Origin: Patescibacteria group bacterium
Lineage (GTDB): Bacteria > Patescibacteriota > Patescibacteriia > Patescibacteriales > JBAZCA01
Length of the DNA stretch: 64,000 nucleotides
NCBI GenBank assembly: GCA_041671125.1
Contig: JBAZCA010000001.1
Coordinates: 72,120-136,119, forward strand
Direction of reading: 5' to 3'
In this document: one piece after another, positions 3,723 to 59,911 of the stretch
How the letters are laid out: each line of letters opens with the position of its first letter
How positions within the stretch are numbered: the first letter of the stretch is position 1
Translations under genes and position numbers: made by a program
The notes under the pieces: model-generated
What the model was told of the DNA's origin: nothing
Databases searched by the model: none
Seen by the model: only the letters and a program-made list of their open reading frames with translations

Positions 3723-4623
3723 TTGCTTGCCCTCCTTTCAGATGTTTACCATATTTTTTCTTCCAGACGGCCTGATCATCATCGTACTGCTGAAGCCGTC
3801 TAAGATAAGCCTCATCGGCCTGGGGGTTTGCCGGTGCTTGGCGCTCGGACTTGAGGTCGCGGAGCACCGATTTAAACCGGGTGTCCGGGGCAGTATCATA
3901 CCCCGGCTGACTAAGGTCGGCGGATCCGACCATTTCCATCAGAATCCCCAGAACCCGACCGCCAGCTATGCTGGCAAGACCCATAGGTCCTGCAGATGCA
4001 GCGGCGGCGTCTTCTGTAGATACGCTACCAATCCGCTCGAGTATTCGCTCTCCTAGTCCTGGGAATTTGAGCCTGGAGATGGATTCGATAATTCCGGCCA
4101 ATTCGGCCATGAGCTCTTTGTGACGCTCACTGCCGAACTCAACCCACTCAATCTTTACCTCAGGGTATTGATTGATTGGGCGGATATGCTTCCAGTTGAA
4201 TCTGGGCATGCCGGTGCCAAAAACCAGTTGCGCATCCGGCGCATACTGGTGTTCGGACGACCTGGAGTTGATGTAGGCCTGCCGGTTCCAGTCCCGGCCT
4301 TTAACATCAATGACCCAGAGGAGGGGTTGGCTCCCTCTCATGATATCAAGGCCACCGACACTTTCCTTCCCAGGCTTATCATCTTTCTCGTCGTTCCGAA
4401 AGATAATATTATGGGCTACTCCCCCGTCGACAACTTCACTCCTAAAAAGGAGTTCGTGCTCGGGAATCAAGACGGAGTAGTATCCCTTTGCGTTGCCCAT
4501 GTTTTTGAAATCCTGGGGGAGGCTATAAAGCTCATTTTTTCCCATCCGCCCGGTGGCACAGCCACTGAGCAGGGTTCCAATTGCCAAAAGTACCAGAATC
4601 CGTAAAACAACTTTCACTTTCAT
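3715..4623 (-). CDS. Lipoprotein, function unknown
   Basis: Lipobox LLSGC after a hydrophobic N-terminus. GAGGAGGAAGG directly upstream of the ATG. 8-nt overlap with the downstream LysM gene suggests translational coupling. Confidence 0.65.
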   Translation of the reverse strand: MKVKVVLRILVLLAIGTLLSGCATGRMGKNELYSLPQDFKNMGNAKGYYSVLIPEHELLFRSEVVDGGVAHNIIFRNDEKDDKPGKESVGGLDIMRGSQPLLWVIDVKGRDWNRQAYINSRSSEHQYAPDAQLVFGTGMPRFNWKHIRPINQYPEVKIEWVEFGSERHKELMAELAGIIESISRLKFPGLGERILERIGSVSTEDAAAASAGPMGLASIAGGRVLGILMEMVGSADLSQPGYDTAPDTRFKSVLRDLKSERQAPANPQADEAYLRRLQQYDDDQAVWKKKYGKHLKGGQASE

Positions 4624-7841: not shown

Positions 7842-10220
7842 GTGTCCTACAAATTCGCCCAAGTAATATTAAGCTCAAAAACCGGCTCCAAAGTCTGGAG
7901 CGATATTTATTTATCGGAAACCGACGCGGAAAAAGAAATGCGGCTCGGGAAACTTTTTATTTTGGTTGAAATTAGCGGAAACCGGAATGACAGCCTGAAA
8001 ATAATTAACTTCCTTTTAGCGGAAATCCCGAAAAGTTATTACCAGAACGAGCAGTACTTTTTTAAGGAATCGGGTCTCATAAAAATTGACCTGCTGCTTG
8101 AATCCGCCCTGACCGCCACCAATAAATCCTTTTCCCGCTTTTGCCGGGACGAGCGGATCCGGCTCCCGGAAAAAAAATCAAGCCTCACTGTCGGGGTCAT
8201 CCATAAAGACGCGATTTATTTTTCCTCCAGCGGAACCAACAAGGCCTATCTCGCCGCCAGGATAAAGGAAAATGGCGGTGTAAGAACGAGGCTCATAAAC
8301 ATCTTAAGCGAGAGCCGCGGTCCGGCGGCGGAAACCGAATCGCGAAAATACCTTTTTTCCCATATCATAAGCGGCCCTTTTCCCCGCGGCGCCCATGCCA
8401 TTTTTACCAATGAAACCCTGCCGGAATATTTCAGTGAAAAAAAGCTTTCGGAAATAATCACCACCCTCCCTCCGGCGAGCGCCGCCGAATTGATTAAGAA
8501 CGAACTCTCGGGCATCAGCGCCATAACTTCCATTCTCGGGCTGATCATAAAAAACCTGAAAAACGAAAAATCCGCCCGGGAAAGCCTGTCCATAACTCCG
8601 CAAAGCGATCCGAGTGCCTCCCTTTCCTACCTTGATAAAACCGAAAAGCGGACCGAAACCTTTTTAAGCCCGTCCGGGCTTCTGCCGATAAAAAACTGGG
8701 GAACAAAAATCATTGAGCGGTTAAGGGCTGGCTCACGGAAGTATTTCCCCGGAGAAAATAAATTTATCCTGATCAGAGAAAAAATCATTTCCAAAAAAAG
8801 AACCAGCCGTTTTTCTCCGAAGAAAACGCTTTTTTCTTTAACCAGATTCATCACCAGACTGGCCGAGTTAGGCCTTAAACGCTTTTCCAAGGCCAAATCC
8901 GGCAACTTTACCCCGCCCGCCGGAGCCGCGATAACAGCCGCCTTGCCCGGGGAAGACAGTAGCCCCATGATTCAACCGCACGACGCGATACTAAACCTAA
9001 GACAGAAAAAATTCACTCTCGCTTCACTAGCCGCTTTGCCTTTTTATTGTTTTTCCAGAGCCCGCTCTCTAACCGCCGGCTTAAAAAATTGGTTTACGAG
9101 CCTTGGGCGCGCGGGAAAAATTTCACTCATTGCCGGAGCCGCCTGCCTGATCCTGTTTTCCGTAAATTTATCGGTCTTAGCTAATAAGAAAAAGGGTGAG
9201 GAAATAAAAAAAACTTATAGCCGGCTGGCTGAAGAGGTAACGCAAAAACAGAACCAGATTGAAGCCTCTTTCCTCTACGGCAATGAAAAAGGGGCTAAAG
9301 ACCTGATTATTGAAGTCGCGGGCATTCTTGATCAATTTCCCAAAAACGTTGGCGATATCGCCCGATATGAGGAACTTAAGAAAAAATTTCTGGAACAGGA
9401 AGAAAAACTGAGCCGCGCGATAAAAATCGCGGATCCGAAAACGCTCGCCGATTTCTCCATTGCCGCGGCCGGCGCCGACCCGCTCTATCTCGCCCAAGCG
9501 GGCGAAAAAATATTCGCTTACGACCGCGCCTTGGCGAGCCTTTTTAAGATTGATGAAAAAAACAAAGCTGTTACTTCAATAGCCATCCCGGCCGAATTTA
9601 AAAGCCTCTCGGCGCCAGTTACTGATAAAAATAACGACTGTCTTTTTAAATCAGAAAACAAGATCGCCGCCTTAAACCCGGCGGAGGAAAAATGGGCCAA
9701 CCGGGAGCTTGGTTCTGACCGAGCCGCCGGGCTGGACATCTTTTCCACCTATAACAACCGGCTTTATTTCCTTGACAAGGCCGGAGGCCAGGTTGTCCGC
9801 TTTAATAAATCCGGCGAAAGCTACGGCCCTGGCCAGAATTGGCTCACTGAAAAAGCCGATTTTAAAGATGCCCTTGACCTGGACATTGACGGCAATGTCT
9901 ATATTCTTAAGAAAAACGGAGAAGTCCAAAAATTCTTTTCCGGAAAAAAAGCCGAACTAAAAATGGAAGGGCTTATCCGCCCCATTACTGAAGCAGTAGC
10001 TCTTAAAGTGAGCCTCGAAGAAACCGGGTTTATCTATATTTTAGAACCGAAAGAAAAACGTTTGGCTGTCTTTAGAAAAGACGGCAGTTTTGTCCTCCAA
10101 TATCAGTCGGAAAAATGGAGCAACTTGAAGGATTTTATCGTTAACGAAAGCGCGAAAAAAATCTACGTCCTGAACGGCGCAGTGGTTTACGAAATAGAAG
10201 CGGAGCATTTGAAAAAATAG
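7842..10220 (+). CDS. Large hypothetical membrane protein (C-terminal beta-propeller-like repeats)
   Basis: 792-aa ORF with a GTG start. Central TM (ISLIAGAACLILFSVNLSVL). Repeated motifs NRLYFLDKAGGQVVRF, GNVYILKKNGEVQKF and KIYVLNGAVVYEI. Confidence 0.5.
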   Translation: MSYKFAQVILSSKTGSKVWSDIYLSETDAEKEMRLGKLFILVEISGNRNDSLKIINFLLAEIPKSYYQNEQYFFKESGLIKIDLLLESALTATNKSFSRFCRDERIRLPEKKSSLTVGVIHKDAIYFSSSGTNKAYLAARIKENGGVRTRLINILSESRGPAAETESRKYLFSHIISGPFPRGAHAIFTNETLPEYFSEKKLSEIITTLPPASAAELIKNELSGISAITSILGLIIKNLKNEKSARESLSITPQSDPSASLSYLDKTEKRTETFLSPSGLLPIKNWGTKIIERLRAGSRKYFPGENKFILIREKIISKKRTSRFSPKKTLFSLTRFITRLAELGLKRFSKAKSGNFTPPAGAAITAALPGEDSSPMIQPHDAILNLRQKKFTLASLAALPFYCFSRARSLTAGLKNWFTSLGRAGKISLIAGAACLILFSVNLSVLANKKKGEEIKKTYSRLAEEVTQKQNQIEASFLYGNEKGAKDLIIEVAGILDQFPKNVGDIARYEELKKKFLEQEEKLSRAIKIADPKTLADFSIAAAGADPLYLAQAGEKIFAYDRALASLFKIDEKNKAVTSIAIPAEFKSLSAPVTDKNNDCLFKSENKIAALNPAEEKWANRELGSDRAAGLDIFSTYNNRLYFLDKAGGQVVRFNKSGESYGPGQNWLTEKADFKDALDLDIDGNVYILKKNGEVQKFFSGKKAELKMEGLIRPITEAVALKVSLEETGFIYILEPKEKRLAVFRKDGSFVLQYQSEKWSNLKDFIVNESAKKIYVLNGAVVYEIEAEHLKK

Positions 10221-10813: not shown

Positions 10814-11344
10814 TCAGCTTGTTTTTTTCTCTTCAACTGCCTTAAGGACATAAACCAAATTCCTTAAATTCCCGGCCAAAGCGTTAACGAAGCCTGAAAC
10901 AGGAGCGTTAATGGAACCAACGATTTTCGCGTAAAGTTCGGTTTTGGACGGAAGGGTGGCTAGCATTTTTACCTCTTCGGCGGCCAGCGTTTTCCCTTCA
11001 AGGATACCGGCTAAAAATTCCAGCTTGCCTTCTTTTTCCTTTATGAACTTACTCGCTTCTTTGACCGGCGCCACTTCATCGCCGTAGCCAAAGATGATTC
11101 CGACCTGGCCTTCAAGGTTTTTCGCGTCAACCCCTTTAATCCCTGCGTCGGCGAGCGCCAGGTTGATTAAAGTCTTTTTGGCGACCAAAAATTCGCCGGA
11201 CTCTTTCCTTAAATCAGAACGCAATTTTTCGCTCTCTTCCACGGTCATGCGGCTGTAGCGGGCAAAAAATAATGATTTTGATTTTTTAACTTTTTCTTTT
11301 AATGTCCTTAAAATCTCGCTCTTTTGTAATCTGGTTTTAGGCAT
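10814..11344 (-). CDS. rplJ: 50S ribosomal protein L10
   Basis: 176 aa directly upstream of rplL. Typical L10 N-terminus (KSEILRTLKEKVKKSKSLFFARYSRMTVEESEKLR). Confidence 0.93.
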   Translation of the reverse strand: MPKTRLQKSEILRTLKEKVKKSKSLFFARYSRMTVEESEKLRSDLRKESGEFLVAKKTLINLALADAGIKGVDAKNLEGQVGIIFGYGDEVAPVKEASKFIKEKEGKLEFLAGILEGKTLAAEEVKMLATLPSKTELYAKIVGSINAPVSGFVNALAGNLRNLVYVLKAVEEKKTS

Positions 11345-11592
11345 ATTTGCGGTCTCGTATCACATATCACATATCTCATATCTCATATCTCATTTTCAGT
11401 ACCTTAAGTGGTCAATATTATGAGATGCGAGATATGAGCTTTGAGATACGAGATATAAGATTCAAGATAATAAAAAACTGCGGCTAAAGCCACAGCGCGC
11501 GACAATTGAAAAGCCAGCTTTTAATAAGCAGACTGCTTCATCGCCTCGGCAGGTCTTAATTTTTGCCTGCTGTCTGTGGCTAAGTTATCCTT

Positions 11593-48910: not shown

Positions 48911-51148
48911 ATGAAATTAATCATCGTTGAGTCGCCAACCAAGGCCAAAACCATTTCCAAATTCATTTCCAAAGACTATAAGGTTGAGTCTTCTTTCGGG
49001 CATATTCGCGACCTGCCAAAAAGCGAAATGGGAATTGATATTGAAAACGATTTTACGCCCGAATACGTAATTCCGCTAAAAAGCCGGAAAACCGTAGCTA
49101 ACCTAAAGGCTTTGGCTAAAAAAGCGGAAAAAATTATCCTGGCCTCGGACGAAGACCGGGAAGGAGAAGCGATTGCCTGGCATTTAGCCGAAGCGCTGAA
49201 GCTTAATAAAAGCCAGACCCAACGGATTGTTTTCCATGAAATTACCAAGCCAGCCATACTTAAAGCCATTGAAAATCCCCGGGAGATCAATAGCCACCTC
49301 GTTGACGCCCAGCAGGCGCGCCGGGTTTTAGATCGCCTCGTCGGCTACGAGCTTTCGCCCTTTTTATGGAAAAAAGTCGCTCGCGGACTATCGGCCGGCC
49401 GGGTGCAATCGGTGGCCGTCCGGTTAATCGTTGAACGGGAACGCGAAATTAAAGCTTTTAAAGCCGAAGAATACTGGAGCGTCTCAGCCCTCCTGGCCCG
49501 GACCAAAGAAAAAGATTCCCAATTTGAAACCAGGCTCCATAAAATAAACGGCAAAACCGTTGAAAAACTCCAGATAAAAAATGAAGTTGAGGCCGATAAA
49601 ATCTTATCCGACCTTAAAGGCGCGGAATACAAGGTCGCGGAAGTCGTAAAAAAAGAAGGAACAAAAAACCCTCCCCGGCCGTTTACTACTTCCACCCTCC
49701 AGCAAACTGCCAACCGCTGGCTCGGATTCTCCGCCAAGCAGACCATGACCCTAGCTCAAAGGCTCTACGAAACCGGCCTTATTACTTACATGCGTACCGA
49801 TTCGGTAAACCTCTCGGAAAAATTCCTCGCCGACGCCGGAGTTTACCTTAATAACGCTTTAGGCGGAGAATACGCGCTTAAAACTCCGAACCGCTACAAA
49901 ACAAAAAGCAAAGGCGCCCAGGAAGCCCATGAGGCTATCCGGCCGACCGAAGCGGCCGATGACCCTGAATCCGTAAAAGACAAGCTGGAGTCCGGCCAGT
50001 ACCGGCTCTATAAACTGATCTGGCAAAGATCAATCGCCTCGCAGATGCCGCCAGCCAAGGTTGACGCTACGACCATAGACGTTGACGCGGAAAAAGACGG
50101 CCGAGCCGACTACCAATTCCGGGCGACCGGCCAGGTAATAAAATTTGACGGTTATTTAAAAATTTATCCGGAGAAAAGCGCCGAAATTGAATTGCCAGAA
50201 GTGGAAGTTGAAGAAGCGCTTGATCTTATAAAACTAAGTGGCGAAGAACATTTTACTAAGCCGCCGGCCCGCTACTCGGACGCCGGACTGGTTAAAGTTT
50301 TAGAAAAATACGGTATCGGCCGGCCGTCCACTTACGCCCCGACGATCGCGACGATTGAGACGCGGAATTACATGGAGCGGGACGAAAATAAAAAATTAAA
50401 GCCGACTGATATCGCTTTCGTAGTAAACGACCTTTTGGTCGCCCATTTTCCCAATATCGTTGACTTTCAGTTTACGGCCGGCATGGAAAACAATCTTGAT
50501 GAAATTGCCGAAGGGCGGCAGAAATGGCAGCCGGTGATAGGAGAATTTTATGTTCCTTTCCATGATAATTTAATAAAAAAGCAGGACGAACTGAAAAAAT
50601 CCGACATCATCCCCGAAGAAAAATCCGAGGAGGTCTGCGAAAAATGCGGCTCGGCCATGATCATTAAAACCGGACGCTGGGGAAAATATCTTGCCTGTTC
50701 CAATTTTCCGGAATGTAAAAATATCAAATCATTGCCTAAAGCGGGCGTAACCGCCGATCCCGAGACGGAAGCAAAGCTAAAAGCGCTTCAGGAAAAATAC
50801 AAGGACGAAGTTTGCGAAAAATGCGGCTCAGCGATGGTTATAAAAAACGGCCGCTTTGGACCGTTTTTAGCCTGCTCCGGCTATCCGAAATGCAAAAACA
50901 TAAAAAGCATTACTGAAAATTCCGGCTCTACCGGAATAAAATGCCCTGTCTGCGGAGAGGGGGAAATTGTCATGAAGCGAAGCCGACGCGGCCCCTTTTA
51001 TGCCTGCAACCGCTACCCGGACTGCAAAACTTCTTTTTCTTCTAAACCCACCGGCGAAAAATGCCCGGACTGCGGCGCGCTTCTTCTAGAAGCAAAAGAC
51101 GGCGGAGTTAAATGTTCGGCTAAAGGTTGCGGGTATAAGACCGCGTAG
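48911..51148 (+). CDS. topA: DNA topoisomerase I (four C-terminal zinc ribbons)
   Basis: MKLIIVESPTKAKTI (Toprim). ITYMRTDS active-site Tyr region. Four C-x2-C...C-x4/5-C fingers. ATG 48911 preferred over TTG 48887. The stop TAG lies inside a REP stem. Confidence 0.93.
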   Translation: MKLIIVESPTKAKTISKFISKDYKVESSFGHIRDLPKSEMGIDIENDFTPEYVIPLKSRKTVANLKALAKKAEKIILASDEDREGEAIAWHLAEALKLNKSQTQRIVFHEITKPAILKAIENPREINSHLVDAQQARRVLDRLVGYELSPFLWKKVARGLSAGRVQSVAVRLIVEREREIKAFKAEEYWSVSALLARTKEKDSQFETRLHKINGKTVEKLQIKNEVEADKILSDLKGAEYKVAEVVKKEGTKNPPRPFTTSTLQQTANRWLGFSAKQTMTLAQRLYETGLITYMRTDSVNLSEKFLADAGVYLNNALGGEYALKTPNRYKTKSKGAQEAHEAIRPTEAADDPESVKDKLESGQYRLYKLIWQRSIASQMPPAKVDATTIDVDAEKDGRADYQFRATGQVIKFDGYLKIYPEKSAEIELPEVEVEEALDLIKLSGEEHFTKPPARYSDAGLVKVLEKYGIGRPSTYAPTIATIETRNYMERDENKKLKPTDIAFVVNDLLVAHFPNIVDFQFTAGMENNLDEIAEGRQKWQPVIGEFYVPFHDNLIKKQDELKKSDIIPEEKSEEVCEKCGSAMIIKTGRWGKYLACSNFPECKNIKSLPKAGVTADPETEAKLKALQEKYKDEVCEKCGSAMVIKNGRFGPFLACSGYPKCKNIKSITENSGSTGIKCPVCGEGEIVMKRSRRGPFYACNRYPDCKTSFSSKPTGEKCPDCGALLLEAKDGGVKCSAKGCGYKTA

Positions 51149-51173
51149 AGACGCGATTAATCGCGTCTCTACG
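51144..51173. repeat. REP hairpin a (GTAGAGACGC family)
   Basis: cgtagagacgcg-attaat-cgcgtctctacg. Contains the topA stop codon (51146-48). Confidence 0.9.
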
Positions 51174-51253
51174 GATGTAATTTTACCGTTTCGTCCGGAC
51201 GCAATCATCCGCACCGCGCGCGCGTCATCCCGCGGCGCAACCCGATTAACCGC

Positions 51254-51282
51254 GTAGAGACGCCCCGTCGGGGCGTCTCTAC
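51254..51282. repeat. REP hairpin b
   Basis: gtagagacgcccc-g-t-c-ggggcgtctctac. Confidence 0.9.
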
Positions 51283-51293
51283 AAAATGCGTCT

Positions 51294-54218
51294 TTACCTT
51301 TTCGCTCCTGAGTAAGCAATCGCTCTCACAATATCCCAGGCCATCGCCGATTTCGGCGCGTAACCGTAGATGTTTTTGAAGAATTGGATGGATTTTTTCT
51401 CTGAGTTCAGATTTCTATTTGTTGGCCTGAGGCCATAGGAAATAACGGCAATGGCGTTTTGGTCGCGTGGGTTATTCTTGTCCGGCAGTCTCAGGTAAAT
51501 CTTTTTGAACGCGGCCGAGGCATTAGCCTCGGTTTTTTCGTTCTTTTGGGCGGGCCATCGGCCGTTAGCGATTTTAATTATGTCCTGCCAGTCAATTTCA
51601 GTGGCCGGGTTCCGGCCGTAGGCCGATTTAAACGAGTTTACTACCCCTGAGCGCTCGCCCGAGCCGAGGATTTTAGTGGTGTCCGTGCCATTGGTGATAA
51701 AATTGGTTAATACATCTTTCTTGGCGGCGACTATCTCTTTGGCCTCGGACATTAGTTTTTCCAGCGTAGAGATGCCCCGCCGGGGCGTCTCTACGCTGTT
51801 TTGCCGGGTTGCTGTTTTATTCTCCTGATTATCACTAACATCACTTCCCTCACTATCATCTCCTGCCGCGTCATCACCCGGGCTGGTATCGTTATTACTG
51901 TCATTGCCAGTATTGGCAGTGGCGCTGTTGCTATTTTGGCTATTCAGTAAATAGACCGGAATTGTATTGCAGTCCCGGGTATAGTTAAACGTGTTGGAAT
52001 TGGTAGTATTGCCGTTATTATCCACGGCTATGACATACCAACTATGGGAACCGCAGGATAGGTTCTGACCCGGGGTTTGGGAGGCGGCAATATTGGAGAT
52101 ATTGTCAGAGTCCAGGGTATTGTCTATGTAGAGCTGGTATTTAGCTATTCCTGATTCCGTGTCAGACGAGGCGTTCCAGCTGAGGGTCGGGCGGGAGTCG
52201 GAGTTAACCGTATTATTGGCTGGCGAAGAGGCAGTAAAACTCGCCGGGCTGGTTATATCTTTTTCCAGTTCAAATGTATGGGTAGAATAGCCGCCGGAGT
52301 AGGTGAATTGGACAATGCCCGAGGAGTCGGAGAGGCAGGTCAGGTTGGTGCCGTTTCCGTAACTGGTTTGGCAGGTGGTAGCGCCATAACCGGTGATGGC
52401 AGTCGTAGTCGCCGTATTGTCAATCTTGAACGTGTAGTAGCTATCCGGGGCTAAATCGCCAATGGTGTAAACCGTAGAGGTGGCGTGGGTATTTCCCGCT
52501 CCCTCGGTTGAGGTCGCCGTCCAGGATTTATTCTTGTCGCCCGCGGTTTCCCAGGTATTAATATTTAAATCCATGAATGCCGAGGTGGAGGCGGTGTAGT
52601 ACCCGCCTCCGGCGGGTACTACCGAGAAGTTAGAGGTAGCAATGGTGTCAGCGGTGGTAGTGGCGACGAGAGCCCGGTATTTGCCGTTAGAATATATTCG
52701 GACCGAGCCGGTTTGGGGGATAGCGTTAGAGCCCACGGTATATGGCGGTTGGTATTCGTAAGCCCCAATGTCGGGAGTGCCGTAGATGGGGTTGCCGGCG
52801 TAGTCGGTGGTGAGGGAGACGTCGGTGCCAGAGTCGATGGCGGGGGAGGTGGGGTCGGGGATGTAGGTGCCAGTTTGGAAGAGGGGGTCAGATGTCATTT
52901 CGTTTGTTGACGTAACAGTCCCTGATGTCTTCGCGGTATTACCATAAAACCCATTATAATCTACCGTGGGCGTTCCGGCAACCTGTTGAATCCCCATCGC
53001 TAAGTTCATAAATTCATTATTCTTGACCACCAGAGTTCCCTGAGCATAGATACCCTTTCCGTCTTTTGTCGCTTCATCGTAAAAAACATTATTAATGATA
53101 CTGCACGTTGCGTTGGTTCTACAGGCAACCCCAAACTTCGCACTTGCTATGGTGTTAAATATATTATGGCTTATGTTTGCGGTAACAGTGCCGGTCCCTA
53201 CCGTGTCAATAATATGATCCGTGATACCATTAAAGATTGACCGTTTGACTGTTAGCGCAACCGCCGCCCCTTGTATTTCTATACCTGCCGCTCCTGTATT
53301 GGTTGCATTTCCGTTGAGCGTCAATCCGTTGATGGTCATGCTTCCACCATTCAAGTTGATATATTTAGTAGTTGTCCCAACGGGAATATTGGATATTGTT
53401 ACTGTATTTATGGTCAGATTAACATTATTGTTTCCTGTGACCAATATTATTGGATTAGTTAGTCCACCACCTGTTTTATTAATAGTAAGACGGTTATATG
53501 TCGCGTTTATAGTTCCTGCCACATCGGTATGAAATACATCCTCAAGCGTTGTGCCACTGATCGTAATATCGTTGGCAGTAAGGGTTGTTGTGCTATCCGA
53601 TGCTACGGTATTAACCCCTTGGGAATTTCCCGTGAACGATCCTGTATTAATGACCGCTGTTCCCCCGTGCATTGAAAAGCCATCATCGGTGTTATTATTT
53701 GCGCTTATATTGTTAAACGTGACAGTTGAGTTCCCTTCCATCTGGAACCCTTGGTTCCCCATAGAATTGCACGATACATTACTCACTGTTCCAATGGATG
53801 CTCCCCTAAACTGTATTCCATCAGTGGTCATATTGGTTATAGTGCCATTCATAATAACTATACCCGTGCGACCATTTATATCAATTCCTGTAATTGTATT
53901 TACACCATCTCCACTGATTGCAAATCCGCCAAGGTTAATCGTGATGTCATTTCCCCCCACATTCAAGACATCCCCCGCATTGGTACACGAGAGATTTCCA
54001 GCCAGTGTATATGAGGAGGTTACGGTATCACCACAGTTACAGGCAGTCACTCCACCACAATTAGCCGCACTCGCCTTCCCCACTCCCAAAACAAAAAAAC
54101 TTCCCAAAAATAACAGGAAGAAAAAAACAAATCTGGAAAATTTTAGATTTTGAGGTTTAGTTAAGAGAGAGAGAGAGAGAGAGACGGCTTTCATGTTTTT
54201 GTATTTATCCCGACGCAT
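51294..54218 (-). CDS. Large secreted right-handed beta-helix (PbH1-type) surface protein with conserved C-terminal domain
   Basis: Signal/TM segment FVFFFLLFLGSFFVLGV. Many G-x-N/T-rich ~22-aa turns (IMNGTITN, FNNISANNN, ...). Low-complexity linker. The start could be ATG 54218 or 54194. An in-frame REP lies at 51765-96. Confidence 0.7.
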   Translation of the reverse strand: MRRDKYKNMKAVSLSLSLLTKPQNLKFSRFVFFFLLFLGSFFVLGVGKASAANCGGVTACNCGDTVTSSYTLAGNLSCTNAGDVLNVGGNDITINLGGFAISGDGVNTITGIDINGRTGIVIMNGTITNMTTDGIQFRGASIGTVSNVSCNSMGNQGFQMEGNSTVTFNNISANNNTDDGFSMHGGTAVINTGSFTGNSQGVNTVASDSTTTLTANDITISGTTLEDVFHTDVAGTINATYNRLTINKTGGGLTNPIILVTGNNNVNLTINTVTISNIPVGTTTKYINLNGGSMTINGLTLNGNATNTGAAGIEIQGAAVALTVKRSIFNGITDHIIDTVGTGTVTANISHNIFNTIASAKFGVACRTNATCSIINNVFYDEATKDGKGIYAQGTLVVKNNEFMNLAMGIQQVAGTPTVDYNGFYGNTAKTSGTVTSTNEMTSDPLFQTGTYIPDPTSPAIDSGTDVSLTTDYAGNPIYGTPDIGAYEYQPPYTVGSNAIPQTGSVRIYSNGKYRALVATTTADTIATSNFSVVPAGGGYYTASTSAFMDLNINTWETAGDKNKSWTATSTEGAGNTHATSTVYTIGDLAPDSYYTFKIDNTATTTAITGYGATTCQTSYGNGTNLTCLSDSSGIVQFTYSGGYSTHTFELEKDITSPASFTASSPANNTVNSDSRPTLSWNASSDTESGIAKYQLYIDNTLDSDNISNIAASQTPGQNLSCGSHSWYVIAVDNNGNTTNSNTFNYTRDCNTIPVYLLNSQNSNSATANTGNDSNNDTSPGDDAAGDDSEGSDVSDNQENKTATRQNSVETPRRGISTLEKLMSEAKEIVAAKKDVLTNFITNGTDTTKILGSGERSGVVNSFKSAYGRNPATEIDWQDIIKIANGRWPAQKNEKTEANASAAFKKIYLRLPDKNNPRDQNAIAVISYGLRPTNRNLNSEKKSIQFFKNIYGYAPKSAMAWDIVRAIAYSGAKR
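51765..51796. repeat. REP hairpin c, in-frame inside the beta-helix protein gene
   Basis: gcgtagagatgccccgccggggcgtctctacgc. Translated as ...SVETPRRGISTLE.... Confidence 0.9.
54164..54184. repeat. (AG)10 dinucleotide microsatellite within the 5' coding region
   Basis: agagagagagagagagagaga encodes SLSLSL, between the candidate start codons and the signal-peptide core. Confidence 0.95.
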
Positions 54219-54263: not shown

Positions 54264-54291
54264 GTAGAGACGCATTGCAATGCGTCTCTAC
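54264..54291. repeat. REP hairpin d (45 nt downstream of the RAYT stop)
   Basis: gtagagacgca-ttgcaa-tgcgtctctac. Confidence 0.9.
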
Positions 54292-54336
54292 CCTGCACAT
54301 ATTATAGCTGATTATTTTTTCTTTTTCAATAGCTTT

Positions 54337-54957
54337 TCACATCCAAATATTCTCCACGTTATTCCTGTCACGTTCCCACATCGCCGGATTGTTAATAATA
54401 TATTCCCGGATTCGGTTTAAAGATTCGTCGTTCCTGATAATGTGATCGTAAAAACGGGATTGCCAGGCGAAATTAGGATATTCGGATTTCCAAATTTTTT
54501 TCGTGCAGACCGATTTAATTTGATTTATAATTGAACCCAATGAATTTGGTTTCCATTGCGGATTATATCCGCCACGTTTCAATTTATCATCAACCGCAAC
54601 CATCGCGGTGGTAGAGACGCCCCGGCGGGGCGTCTCTACCGTCGCGCGGGGCGTCTCTACGGATGATTTGATCTTGCACAAAATTTCCAAAATTGCGTGC
54701 AAATGATTCGGCATAATTATCCATTCATCCAAAATTACATTCTGACGAATTATCGGCGTTTGCGACAATTCCTCCTGAACGATTTTCCCGATATCATTTA
54801 AACTCATTTTTCCGTTTTTAACCTCTCCAAAATAATGTTCTCTGTCTTTCGTGCAAATCGTTATGAAATATACGCCGTTTTGACTATAATCATAGCCTTC
54901 CAATCTGGCGGATTTGATGCGAAATTTATTTTTAAATCTTTGTGATATTGGCAACAT
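54337..54957 (-). CDS. REP-associated tyrosine transposase (RAYT; IS200/IS605 Y1 HUH family)
   Basis: YDYSQNGVYFITICTKDREHYFG. HUH motif IMPNHLHAIL. Tyr helix WQSRFYDHIIRNDESLNRIREYI. Interrupted in-frame by REP sequence. Confidence 0.8.
   Translation of the reverse strand: MLPISQRFKNKFRIKSARLEGYDYSQNGVYFITICTKDREHYFGEVKNGKMSLNDIGKIVQEELSQTPIIRQNVILDEWIIMPNHLHAILEILCKIKSSVETPRATVETPRRGVSTTAMVAVDDKLKRGGYNPQWKPNSLGSIINQIKSVCTKKIWKSEYPNFAWQSRFYDHIIRNDESLNRIREYIINNPAMWERDRNNVENIWM
54611..54660. repeat. REP hairpin e plus an extra half-site, in-frame inside the RAYT gene
   Basis: gtagagacgccccggcggggcgtctctac followed by cgtcgcgc-ggggcgtctctac. Translated as SVETPRATVETPRRGVSTTA. Confidence 0.9.
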
Positions 54958-59750: not shown

Positions 59751-59881
59751 GGAAAAAAATTACAAATTACGAATTACGAATTACGAATTACGAATTTTTC
59801 CAACCTTAATTATTAATCCGTAATTTTTAATTCTACAAACATGTTATCACTTATCGGCTCATTTTTCAACACCCCGCGGCC

Positions 59882-59911
59882 GGTAGAGACGAAAAATTTT
59901 GCGTCTCTACC
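59882..59911. repeat. REP hairpin g
   Basis: ggtagagacg-aaaaatttt-gcgtctctacc. The helicase stop codon TAG (59909-59907, minus strand) lies in its arm. Confidence 0.9.

Follow-up and report, generated by a model that had tools for sequence, protein, structure and literature searches.

The stretch of DNA considered here (the window) comprises 64,000 nucleotides from the metagenome-assembled genome (MAG) of a Patescibacteria group bacterium (assembly GCA_041671125.1, contig JBAZCA010000001.1, positions 72,120 to 136,119 of the forward strand). Its minus strand encodes a predicted secreted right-handed beta-helix protein. Near the start of this gene, between the initiation codon and the hydrophobic core of the signal peptide, lies a dinucleotide repeat, (TC)10T on the coding strand, which is probably the mutable element of a translational phase-variation (contingency) switch. 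The gene and the components of its leader are as follows.

51294..54194, minus strand: gene for a right-handed beta-helix protein, predicted to be secreted, that also has Ig/FN3-like domains and ends in a helical domain; 966 amino acids from the ATG at 54194 or 974 from the ATG at 54218
54192..54194, minus strand: likely start codon ATG, kept in all three paralog leaders (ATGAAAGCCG.. / ATGAAAGG..)
54216..54218, minus strand: upstream in-frame ATG, the start used in the 974-aa call of NCBI PGAP
54164..54184, minus strand: (TC)10T tract, codons 4-11 (V-SLSLSL-L) counted from ATG 54194; proposed slippage site
54157..54163, minus strand: TAACTAA directly after the tract, in which TAA 54163-54161 and TAA 54159-54157 close the two alternative frames
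54066..54155, minus strand: rest of the signal peptide, with an n-region containing K13, K18 and R21, a core F22-V38 (54131-54081) and a c-region GKASA
54301..54329, minus strand: sigma-70-like promoter, TTGAAA-17 nt-TATAAT (11 of 12 matches), common to the window gene and its paralog L001

Anatomy of the leader and its product

On the plus strand the tract reads AGAGAGAGAGAGAGAGAGAGA (54164-54184), which is 21 nt made up of a perfect (AG)10 plus an A, and on the minus strand it forms (TC)10T inside the gene 51294-54194/54218. It is therefore an uninterrupted simple repeat located within an open reading frame (ORF), and its unit is not a multiple of three. An earlier note, made from the sequence alone, had placed this tract between the start codon and the signal core and had stated that the window holds no other dinucleotide tract of such length. 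Both statements hold, as a regular-expression scan of the 64 kb found one other dinucleotide run of at least five units, (CG)5 at 51215-51224. Of 100 shuffles that preserved dinucleotide composition, none matched (AG)10, even when two mismatches were allowed. As the only long dinucleotide run in 64 kb, and one never matched in the shuffles, the tract is not a chance feature.

The ATG codons at 54194 and 54218 precede the first base of the tract by 10 and 34 nt, respectively, and are both in the frame of the 974-codon ORF. The upstream one is the less likely start because it is replaced by AAG in the paralog L002. There is no Shine-Dalgarno-like sequence at ATG 54194, but this says nothing against that start, since such a motif is missing from 30 of the 39 long ORFs of the window. 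Many of these starts follow A/T-rich leaders, in which TTGTAAT and TTGATAAT-like words recur, and the A-rich context of ATG 54194 is typical of the genome. An Rfam search of the tract region gave no family near its gathering score.

Read from ATG 54194, the N-terminus is MKAVSLSLSLLTKPQNLKFSRFVFFFLLFLGSFFVLGVGKASA|ANCGG, in which a basic n-region is followed by a 17-residue hydrophobic core and an A-x-A site. The core itself, FVFFFLLFLGSFFVLGV, and the ensuing GKASA|A lie downstream of both the tract and the K13..K18..R21 residues, and cleavage is predicted before A44 on the basis of the AXA rule. Immediately after the tract the sequence T-TAA-C-TAA supplies one stop for each alternative frame, such that both reach a TAA within 8 nt of the repeat, with frames f1 and f2 ending LSLSLS* and SLSLSLN*, respectively. 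The claim of the earlier note that one AG unit shifts the frame is in this way confirmed. Upstream of the tract the other two frames contain a stop and no start codon. The start codons are thus confined to a single frame and therefore one repeat phase in three can yield an exported protein.

The in-frame codons that follow the tract are TTA ACT AAA CCT CAA AAT CTA AAA TTT TCC AGA TTT GTT TTT TTC TTC CTG TTA TTT TTG. A reading of the leader found no in-frame ATG, GTG or TTG between the tract and the hydrophobic core, and the first such codon is the final TTG of this series, which is located within the core. Initiation downstream of the tract, the case that the earlier note had named as a refutation, is hence unlikely because a start at this TTG would leave no n-region.

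The product is recorded at NCBI as the 974-aa protein MFA6927730.1, from a MAG labelled 'Patescibacteria group bacterium' and a contig of 275,724 bp. Its match to Pfam Beta_helix (PF13229) scores 26.7 bits against a cut-off of 25.9, just over the curated threshold, and its match to the NCBIfam choice-of-anchor Q family scores 31.6 bits against a cut-off of 25. These are the only families that Pfam and NCBIfam return for the protein, with no homology to the Hop family, and no sequence match was found in the PDB. An AlphaFold2 model built with 43 homologs has a helix at residues 20-35, corresponding to the signal core, a confident beta-helix at about 56-430 (pLDDT up to 96) and two beta-sandwich regions at 485-740, followed by a disordered linker rich in Asn, Asp and Ser and a C-terminal helical domain at low confidence. 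The Foldseek matches were all weak and involved Ig-like modules of adhesins, FN3 modules, and the tailspikes or depolymerases of phages.

In many homologs the C-terminus is formed by a PG_binding_1 domain, which is consistent with a surface protein associated with the wall of a monoderm-like cell. Together with the signal-peptide-like N-terminus and the modelled beta-helix and Ig/FN3-like domains, this suggests a product that is exposed to the environment, either at the surface or in secreted form. The C-terminal helical domain of about 170 residues (residues ~800-966; 51294-51800, minus strand) is conserved in the three paralogs and has no Pfam or PDB match. It occupies the position where many homologs have PG_binding_1 and may be a wall-anchoring module.

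Repeat tracts in paralogs and homologs

A homology search and a cluster listing identified two further genes of the same MAG that have the leader and the C-terminal half in common with the window gene but different beta-helix domains. In what follows, L-numbers refer to fetched loci and P-numbers to homolog protein records. L001, identical to the JGI call P0112, retains the promoter, the leader and ATGAAAGCCGTCTCTCTC, and its tract is (CT)9. This gene is out of frame: the conserved ATG (L001:9979) runs into a TAG at 10054, and one extra CT unit would reconnect the signal peptide. Gene callers rescue it either through a GTG in an inserted hairpin or through a TTG in the signal core. In the second paralog, L002, the tract is interrupted (ACTCTCTTTTTCTCTT) and the gene is in frame. 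One genome hence contains a long in-frame tract, a long out-of-frame tract and an interrupted tract.

To place these genes in the wider family, an unbiased set (L007-L057) was drawn from 80 loci of GTDB representative genomes, picked by their conserved DIGAYEYQ motif and blind to the 5' end. A simple sequence repeat (SSR) was scored as a dinucleotide run of at least six units or a G run of at least eight within 200 nt of the start. Such repeats are found near the start in 11 of the 36 Patescibacteria-type loci with a readable 5' end, compared with 2 of 35 homologs from outside the Patescibacteria. The 11 SSRs fall in 14.3 kb of 5' ends, as against three in the other 387 kb, a 99-fold enrichment (binomial p=4e-14), and one of those three itself belongs to a leader, that of another paralog present at the same locus. 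Moreover, when 107 homolog proteins were inspected, seven from other Patescibacteria were found to carry RERERER between the initiating Met and the signal peptide, which corresponds to (GA)n on the coding strand. The kind of repeat at the homologous leader position differs between genes, being TC, GA or poly-G, and the (GA)n tracts are followed across lineages by GTAAATAG, where stops again occur in both alternative frames.

When the SSR leaders were read in three frames, 11 of 16 proved to be in frame and five out of frame. The five out-of-frame genes hold 618-1099 open codons downstream, and the presence of so many intact codons argues against their being decaying pseudogenes. Two series of related genes display the effect of repeat number most clearly. 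L008, L007 and L005 share the leader MSQRMF..NTKTEIACLP..MRQTQGGG and have tracts of G9, G10 and G11, respectively, of which only the first leaves its gene in frame. All three genes would be in frame with G9 or G12, and the series is a pure length change. The paralogs L006 and L011, whose NCBI accession numbers belong to one series and whose flanks are almost identical, are exactly one GA unit apart. As a result of this difference, the two paralogs have a different member of a pair of overlapping start codons (ATGTATG) in frame, and there is no other change nearby. A third paralog of this pair, L010, has (GA)7, and the same GA leader is present in the CAJBHC01 genome with approximately 3, 3, 4, 9 and 10 units. 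GA tracts of 7, 10.5 and 11.5 units are present in leaders of Paceibacterota.

Some leaders offer two start codons ahead of the tract, each in a different frame, as seen with the ATGTATG of L006:2997-3003 and L011:4186-4192 and with the long-leader ATG plus ATGCGAGAG of L016:878-931. In such leaders two of the three repeat phases would be expected to give protein, with different N-terminal peptides. A further tract, (AG)18 followed by TAAATAGCCC, the flank of the GA-type leaders, occurs on the minus strand of L092:1062-1097, a contig filed as viral (IMGVR_UViG_3300005645_000004). It was found in a scan of viral_contigs for (GA)n-GTAAATARCCC and precedes only a short ORF (MPKLLENYFLACKKEQRERERERERERVNSPLQ..) with no signal peptide.

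Frame state also bears on annotation. The window gene is called as 974 aa by PGAP and as 815 aa by IMG, and in at least 15 of the 107 homolog proteins the called start falls within the signal core. Callers start out-of-frame homologs in the same place (MGSFFVFGAGKASA.., MGKASAATY..; among P0001, P0111, P0047 and P0010), and truncated signal peptides in the beta-helix family may therefore serve as a flag for out-of-frame alleles.

Dinucleotide and homopolymer runs are prone to error and the source is a metagenome assembly, which raises the prospect that the tract lengths are sequencing or assembly artefacts. This is scarcely conceivable, as the same architecture of leader and tract is found in independent ENA, JGI, NCBI and Logan assemblies and in many genomes. 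It is also countered by P0010, where the sequence ATG..TCT-G9-ATTTAA, with the ATG out of frame, occurs in five separate assemblies; their agreement argues against an assembly error.

It is highly improbable, too, that the tract acts at the level of DNA or RNA, either as an H-DNA homopurine-homopyrimidine element or as a pyrimidine-rich ribosome-recruiting leader, with translation starting elsewhere. In favour of such a role, the scarcity of Shine-Dalgarno motifs in the window means that leader composition may matter for initiation. In addition, the G10 run of L017 (homolog P0041), at 4266-4275 and upstream of TGTGTATAAT, lies in the promoter spacer and not in the ORF. In two ENA samples P0041 is an identical 1001-aa protein, and the distance from the rplK stop to its start codon is 172 nt in one and 173 nt in the other, the latter being that of L017; the 1-nt difference is suggestive, but the indel is not localised. 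A role outside translation is, however, difficult to reconcile with the lack of a usable start codon between the tract and the hydrophobic core. Likewise, the homologous tracts of other lineages are purine-rich (GA or G) on the mRNA, and so have no RNA property in common with the window tract. Furthermore, the conserved upstream ATG is in frame with the signal peptide in 11 of the 16 leaders.

Several observations weigh against a switch. The exact window protein is on record for one contig only, and two other assemblies (L003 and L004, reached via a neighbouring 99-aa ORF) end before the tract, inside the transposase-like gene that lies upstream. Exact-protein look-ups with the 974-, 966- and 815-aa versions, and with the product of that upstream gene, returned no contig. 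Scans of genome_contigs and metagenome_contigs gave no match to a 24-mer of the signal peptide, a scan of viral_contigs gave none to a 20-mer, and a second metagenome scan gave none to the GA-type leader with a variable gap. The ENA contig and the JGI call P0112 agree on the (CT)9 state of L001, and all five P0010 assemblies have G9; cluster listings contained no in-frame allele of P0010, although an exact-protein look-up could return only out-of-frame alleles. Unconventional starts are possible in out-of-frame homologs, such as the GTG at L001:10001. Finally, the differences between paralogs are evolutionary and give no switching rate.

The absence of same-locus polymorphism from these data is also what would be expected if the tract were a passive low-complexity spacer in the n-region (SL or RE), generated by occasional slippage and with no adaptive role, and if the out-of-frame homologs were dead or dying. 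In keeping with this, in-frame copies encode a harmless SLSLSL or RERERE, and some paralogs with tracts collapsed to three or four units are still in frame. We regard a passive spacer as unlikely, because it leaves unexplained why SSRs should be so strongly enriched at exactly this position, why three repeat types should occupy homologous leaders, why the out-of-frame alleles should keep their long ORFs intact and why stops in both alternative frames should sit just past the tract in several lineages.

The contingency switch is the reading that accommodates these features, and the proposal of the earlier note has gained support from the comparison. Other surface-protein genes do carry 5' tracts (GA/CT or poly-G, in the 11 of 36 Patescibacteria homologs), and the repeat numbers of related genes, for which the earlier note had asked, differ: 10 units in the window gene, nine in L001 and an interrupted tract in L002, a single unit between L006 and L011, and G9, G10 and G11 in the poly-G series.

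Palindromic elements around the gene

Two further features lie upstream of the leader.

54264..54291, no strand assigned: perfect 28-nt palindrome GTAGAGACGCATTGCAATGCGTCTCTAC, similar to a repetitive extragenic palindrome (REP), at the predicted 5' end of the mRNA; the L001 copy separates the tract from the signal peptide and is in frame
54337..54957, minus strand: IS200/RayT-like tyrosine-transposase gene directly upstream of the beta-helix gene; a gene of this type also precedes L002, and it is considered here as context and not as part of the switch

The wider neighbourhood is ordinary chromosome, with topA, pheST, hisS, der, relA/spoT and a gene for an LCP protein. The matches of the RayT-like gene are both below threshold, at 67.1 bits for NCBIfam REP_Tyr_transpos (cut-off 80) and 22.8 bits for Pfam Y1_Tnp (cut-off 23). 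The gene is repeated in the genome, since the two other assemblies mentioned above break inside it. Five hairpins with the stem GTAGAGACG..CGTCTCTAC and different loops are present in the window, at 51145-51172, 51254-51282, 54264-54291, 54611-54639 and 59883-59910. None would be expected from shuffled sequence. Four of the five lie within 3.6 kb of the RayT-like gene; two are placed just 3' of the beta-helix gene, one in its 5' untranslated region (5'UTR) and one inside the RayT-like ORF. The copies in L001 and L002 are in frame within coding regions, where they encode SVETPRRGVST in a linker of the surface protein.

REP hairpins are known to follow a GTAG rule, and the Rickettsia palindromic elements offer a comparison for the in-frame copies. 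The arrangement in the window resembles a REPtron (RayT/TnpA-REP with REP hairpins) in that GTAG-headed hairpins surround an IS200-like Y1 gene and also occur in frame in coding regions, although this likeness concerns the neighbourhood and not the switch.

A second element, with hairpin arms CCCCGTGGAAT and ATTCCACTGGGG, occurs at L001:9996-10031 (minus strand) and L010:5956-6001 (plus strand), in each case within the AG/CT leader tract and oriented with the purine strand as opposed to the gene. This could reflect either strand-specific targeting of (AG)n or inversion of a segment containing both tract and hairpin.

Such elements provide a different explanation for the repeat, in which the tract is a by-product or target of small mobile palindromes, or a hotspot for the exchange of leader cassettes, with its various lengths arising through insertion or recombination. 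The REP-like hairpins that flank the gene, including the one in the 5'UTR and the L001 copy, lend this some support, as do the RayT-like genes beside two of the three paralogs and the second hairpin element, whose two occurrences among 91 loci are both inside an AG/CT tract in purine-strand orientation. Most tracts, including that of the window, nevertheless have no element inside them, and the elements may simply exploit a permissive region. Moreover, the clean difference of one GA unit between L006 and L011 and the pure length change of the G9/G10/G11 series count against insertion or recombination, making this origin of the tract quite improbable. Small palindromes moving in and out of leaders may still remodel switches. 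The idea of an invertible promoter flanked by two of the palindromes (54264-54291 and 54611-54639) was also considered and set aside, as neither a recombinase nor an inverted copy was seen.

Two other repeats of the window are unconnected to the beta-helix gene. At 59765-59792, four copies of AATTACG and one imperfect copy that follows them might constitute a second length-variable repeat; some 15 nt downstream begins an ORF for a small membrane protein, after which comes pheS. At 11345-11470, the minus strand carries gagatatgagatatgagatatgtgatatgtgatacgag, corresponding to (CATATCT)3 on the plus strand, which stops 9 nt short of the start codon ATG of the ORF 10814..11344, and degenerate copies (tatctcgtatctca..catatctcgcatctca) are found upstream of it.

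A probable contingency switch in Patescibacteria

The window gene displays four features of a contingency locus, namely a slippage-prone repeat, a frame-shifting unit within the ORF, homologs in both frame states with intact ORFs and a product that is predicted to be exposed. On the model favoured here, transcription would begin from the TTGAAA-17-TATAAT promoter and translation from ATG 54194 (or 54218), proceeding through (TC)10T into the signal peptide, so that the current repeat length would represent the ON state. Replication slippage (slipped-strand mispairing) that adds or removes one TC unit of 2 nt would direct the ribosome into a frame ending at an adjacent TAA, and this OFF state would yield a peptide of 11 to 13 residues and no exported protein. 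A further slip of the right size would restore the frame, and changes of three units would only gain or lose an SL pair. Transcriptional slippage was also considered, and is a plausible process at the poly-G tracts of homologs but an implausible one at a dinucleotide repeat.

A population would consequently hold cells with and without the beta-helix surface protein, as a hedge against selection. We infer both that slippage takes place at the window locus, at whatever rate, and that some agent selects between the two states; phage, recognition of the host cell by an episymbiont, and grazers are candidates for the latter.

In pathogens adapted to a host, among them Helicobacter, Neisseria, Haemophilus and Campylobacter, contingency loci are well known from textbooks. 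The closest analogue of the window gene is oipA of Helicobacter pylori (with sabA and babA), in which a CT/AG unit in the part of the gene encoding the signal peptide slips to toggle a surface protein. Of 536 oipA sequences, 386 were ON and 150 OFF, with a range of 5-11 CT units (PMC10564699). The 10 TC units of the window fall within that range, and the oipA mixture of states is paralleled by the 11 in-frame and five out-of-frame leaders of the beta-helix family. The likeness is one of mechanism only, as the product is a beta-helix/choice-of-anchor Q protein and not a porin-like Hop protein. The setting also differs, being an environmental Patescibacteria MAG and not a host-adapted pathogen, with a leader cassette that can contain TC, GA or poly-G and with switching that is inferred from sequence.

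The opa genes of Neisseria (reportedly the subject of Murphy et al. 1989, as cited in PMC11032452) likewise form a multigene family of surface proteins, in which every copy has a pyrimidine-rich repeat of its own, CTCTT pentamers, in the region encoding the leader peptide, and the copies of one genome are in different phases. In opa the pentamer lies within the hydrophobic core, whereas the unit here is a dimer that precedes the core, and the proteins are unrelated. In lic1 of Haemophilus influenzae a tetramer repeat, CAAT, is accompanied by several start codons in different frames. The two-ATG leaders of L006/L011 and L016 are similar to this system, in contrast to the window gene with its starts in one frame only. 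For Campylobacter, poly-G tracts of at least seven are described as the standard switch (PMC4965091). The poly-G loci of Campylobacter jejuni and Neisseria find their counterparts in L005, L007, L008, L030 and P0010, which have G9-G11 at the leader position and include both frame states, whereas the window tract is a dinucleotide repeat.

More tentatively, Patescibacteria (also termed the Candidate Phyla Radiation, CPR) could carry a widespread modular cassette, in which a promoter and a short leader are followed by an SSR, by stop codons in each of the other frames and by a signal peptide, and which is positioned before many different surface proteins (beta-helix, deacetylase and PG-binding), with TC, GA or poly-G as the repeat and, in some leaders, two start codons in two frames. 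This generalisation seems to us slightly easier to doubt than to accept. Full-text searches found no report that links SSR phase variation or contingency to Patescibacteria, CPR, Parcubacteria, Saccharibacteria or TM7x, the few co-occurrences of these terms being concerned with archaeal methylation or with host bacteria.

Patescibacteria are thought to live attached to other cells and, to our knowledge, little has been established about how they vary their surface. If the family does switch by slippage, the tract would provide a marker of surface heterogeneity within populations of uncultured episymbionts that can be counted directly in reads. It would also identify the beta-helix and PG-binding proteins as molecules under fluctuating selection, through host recognition or phage. 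Moreover, it would explain an annotation problem, in which starts are called inside the signal peptide or 160 codons downstream. If the cassette is indeed widespread, then these tiny episymbionts would, as a general strategy, turn their surface proteins on and off stochastically, and contingency loci would extend beyond the pathogens in which they were defined.

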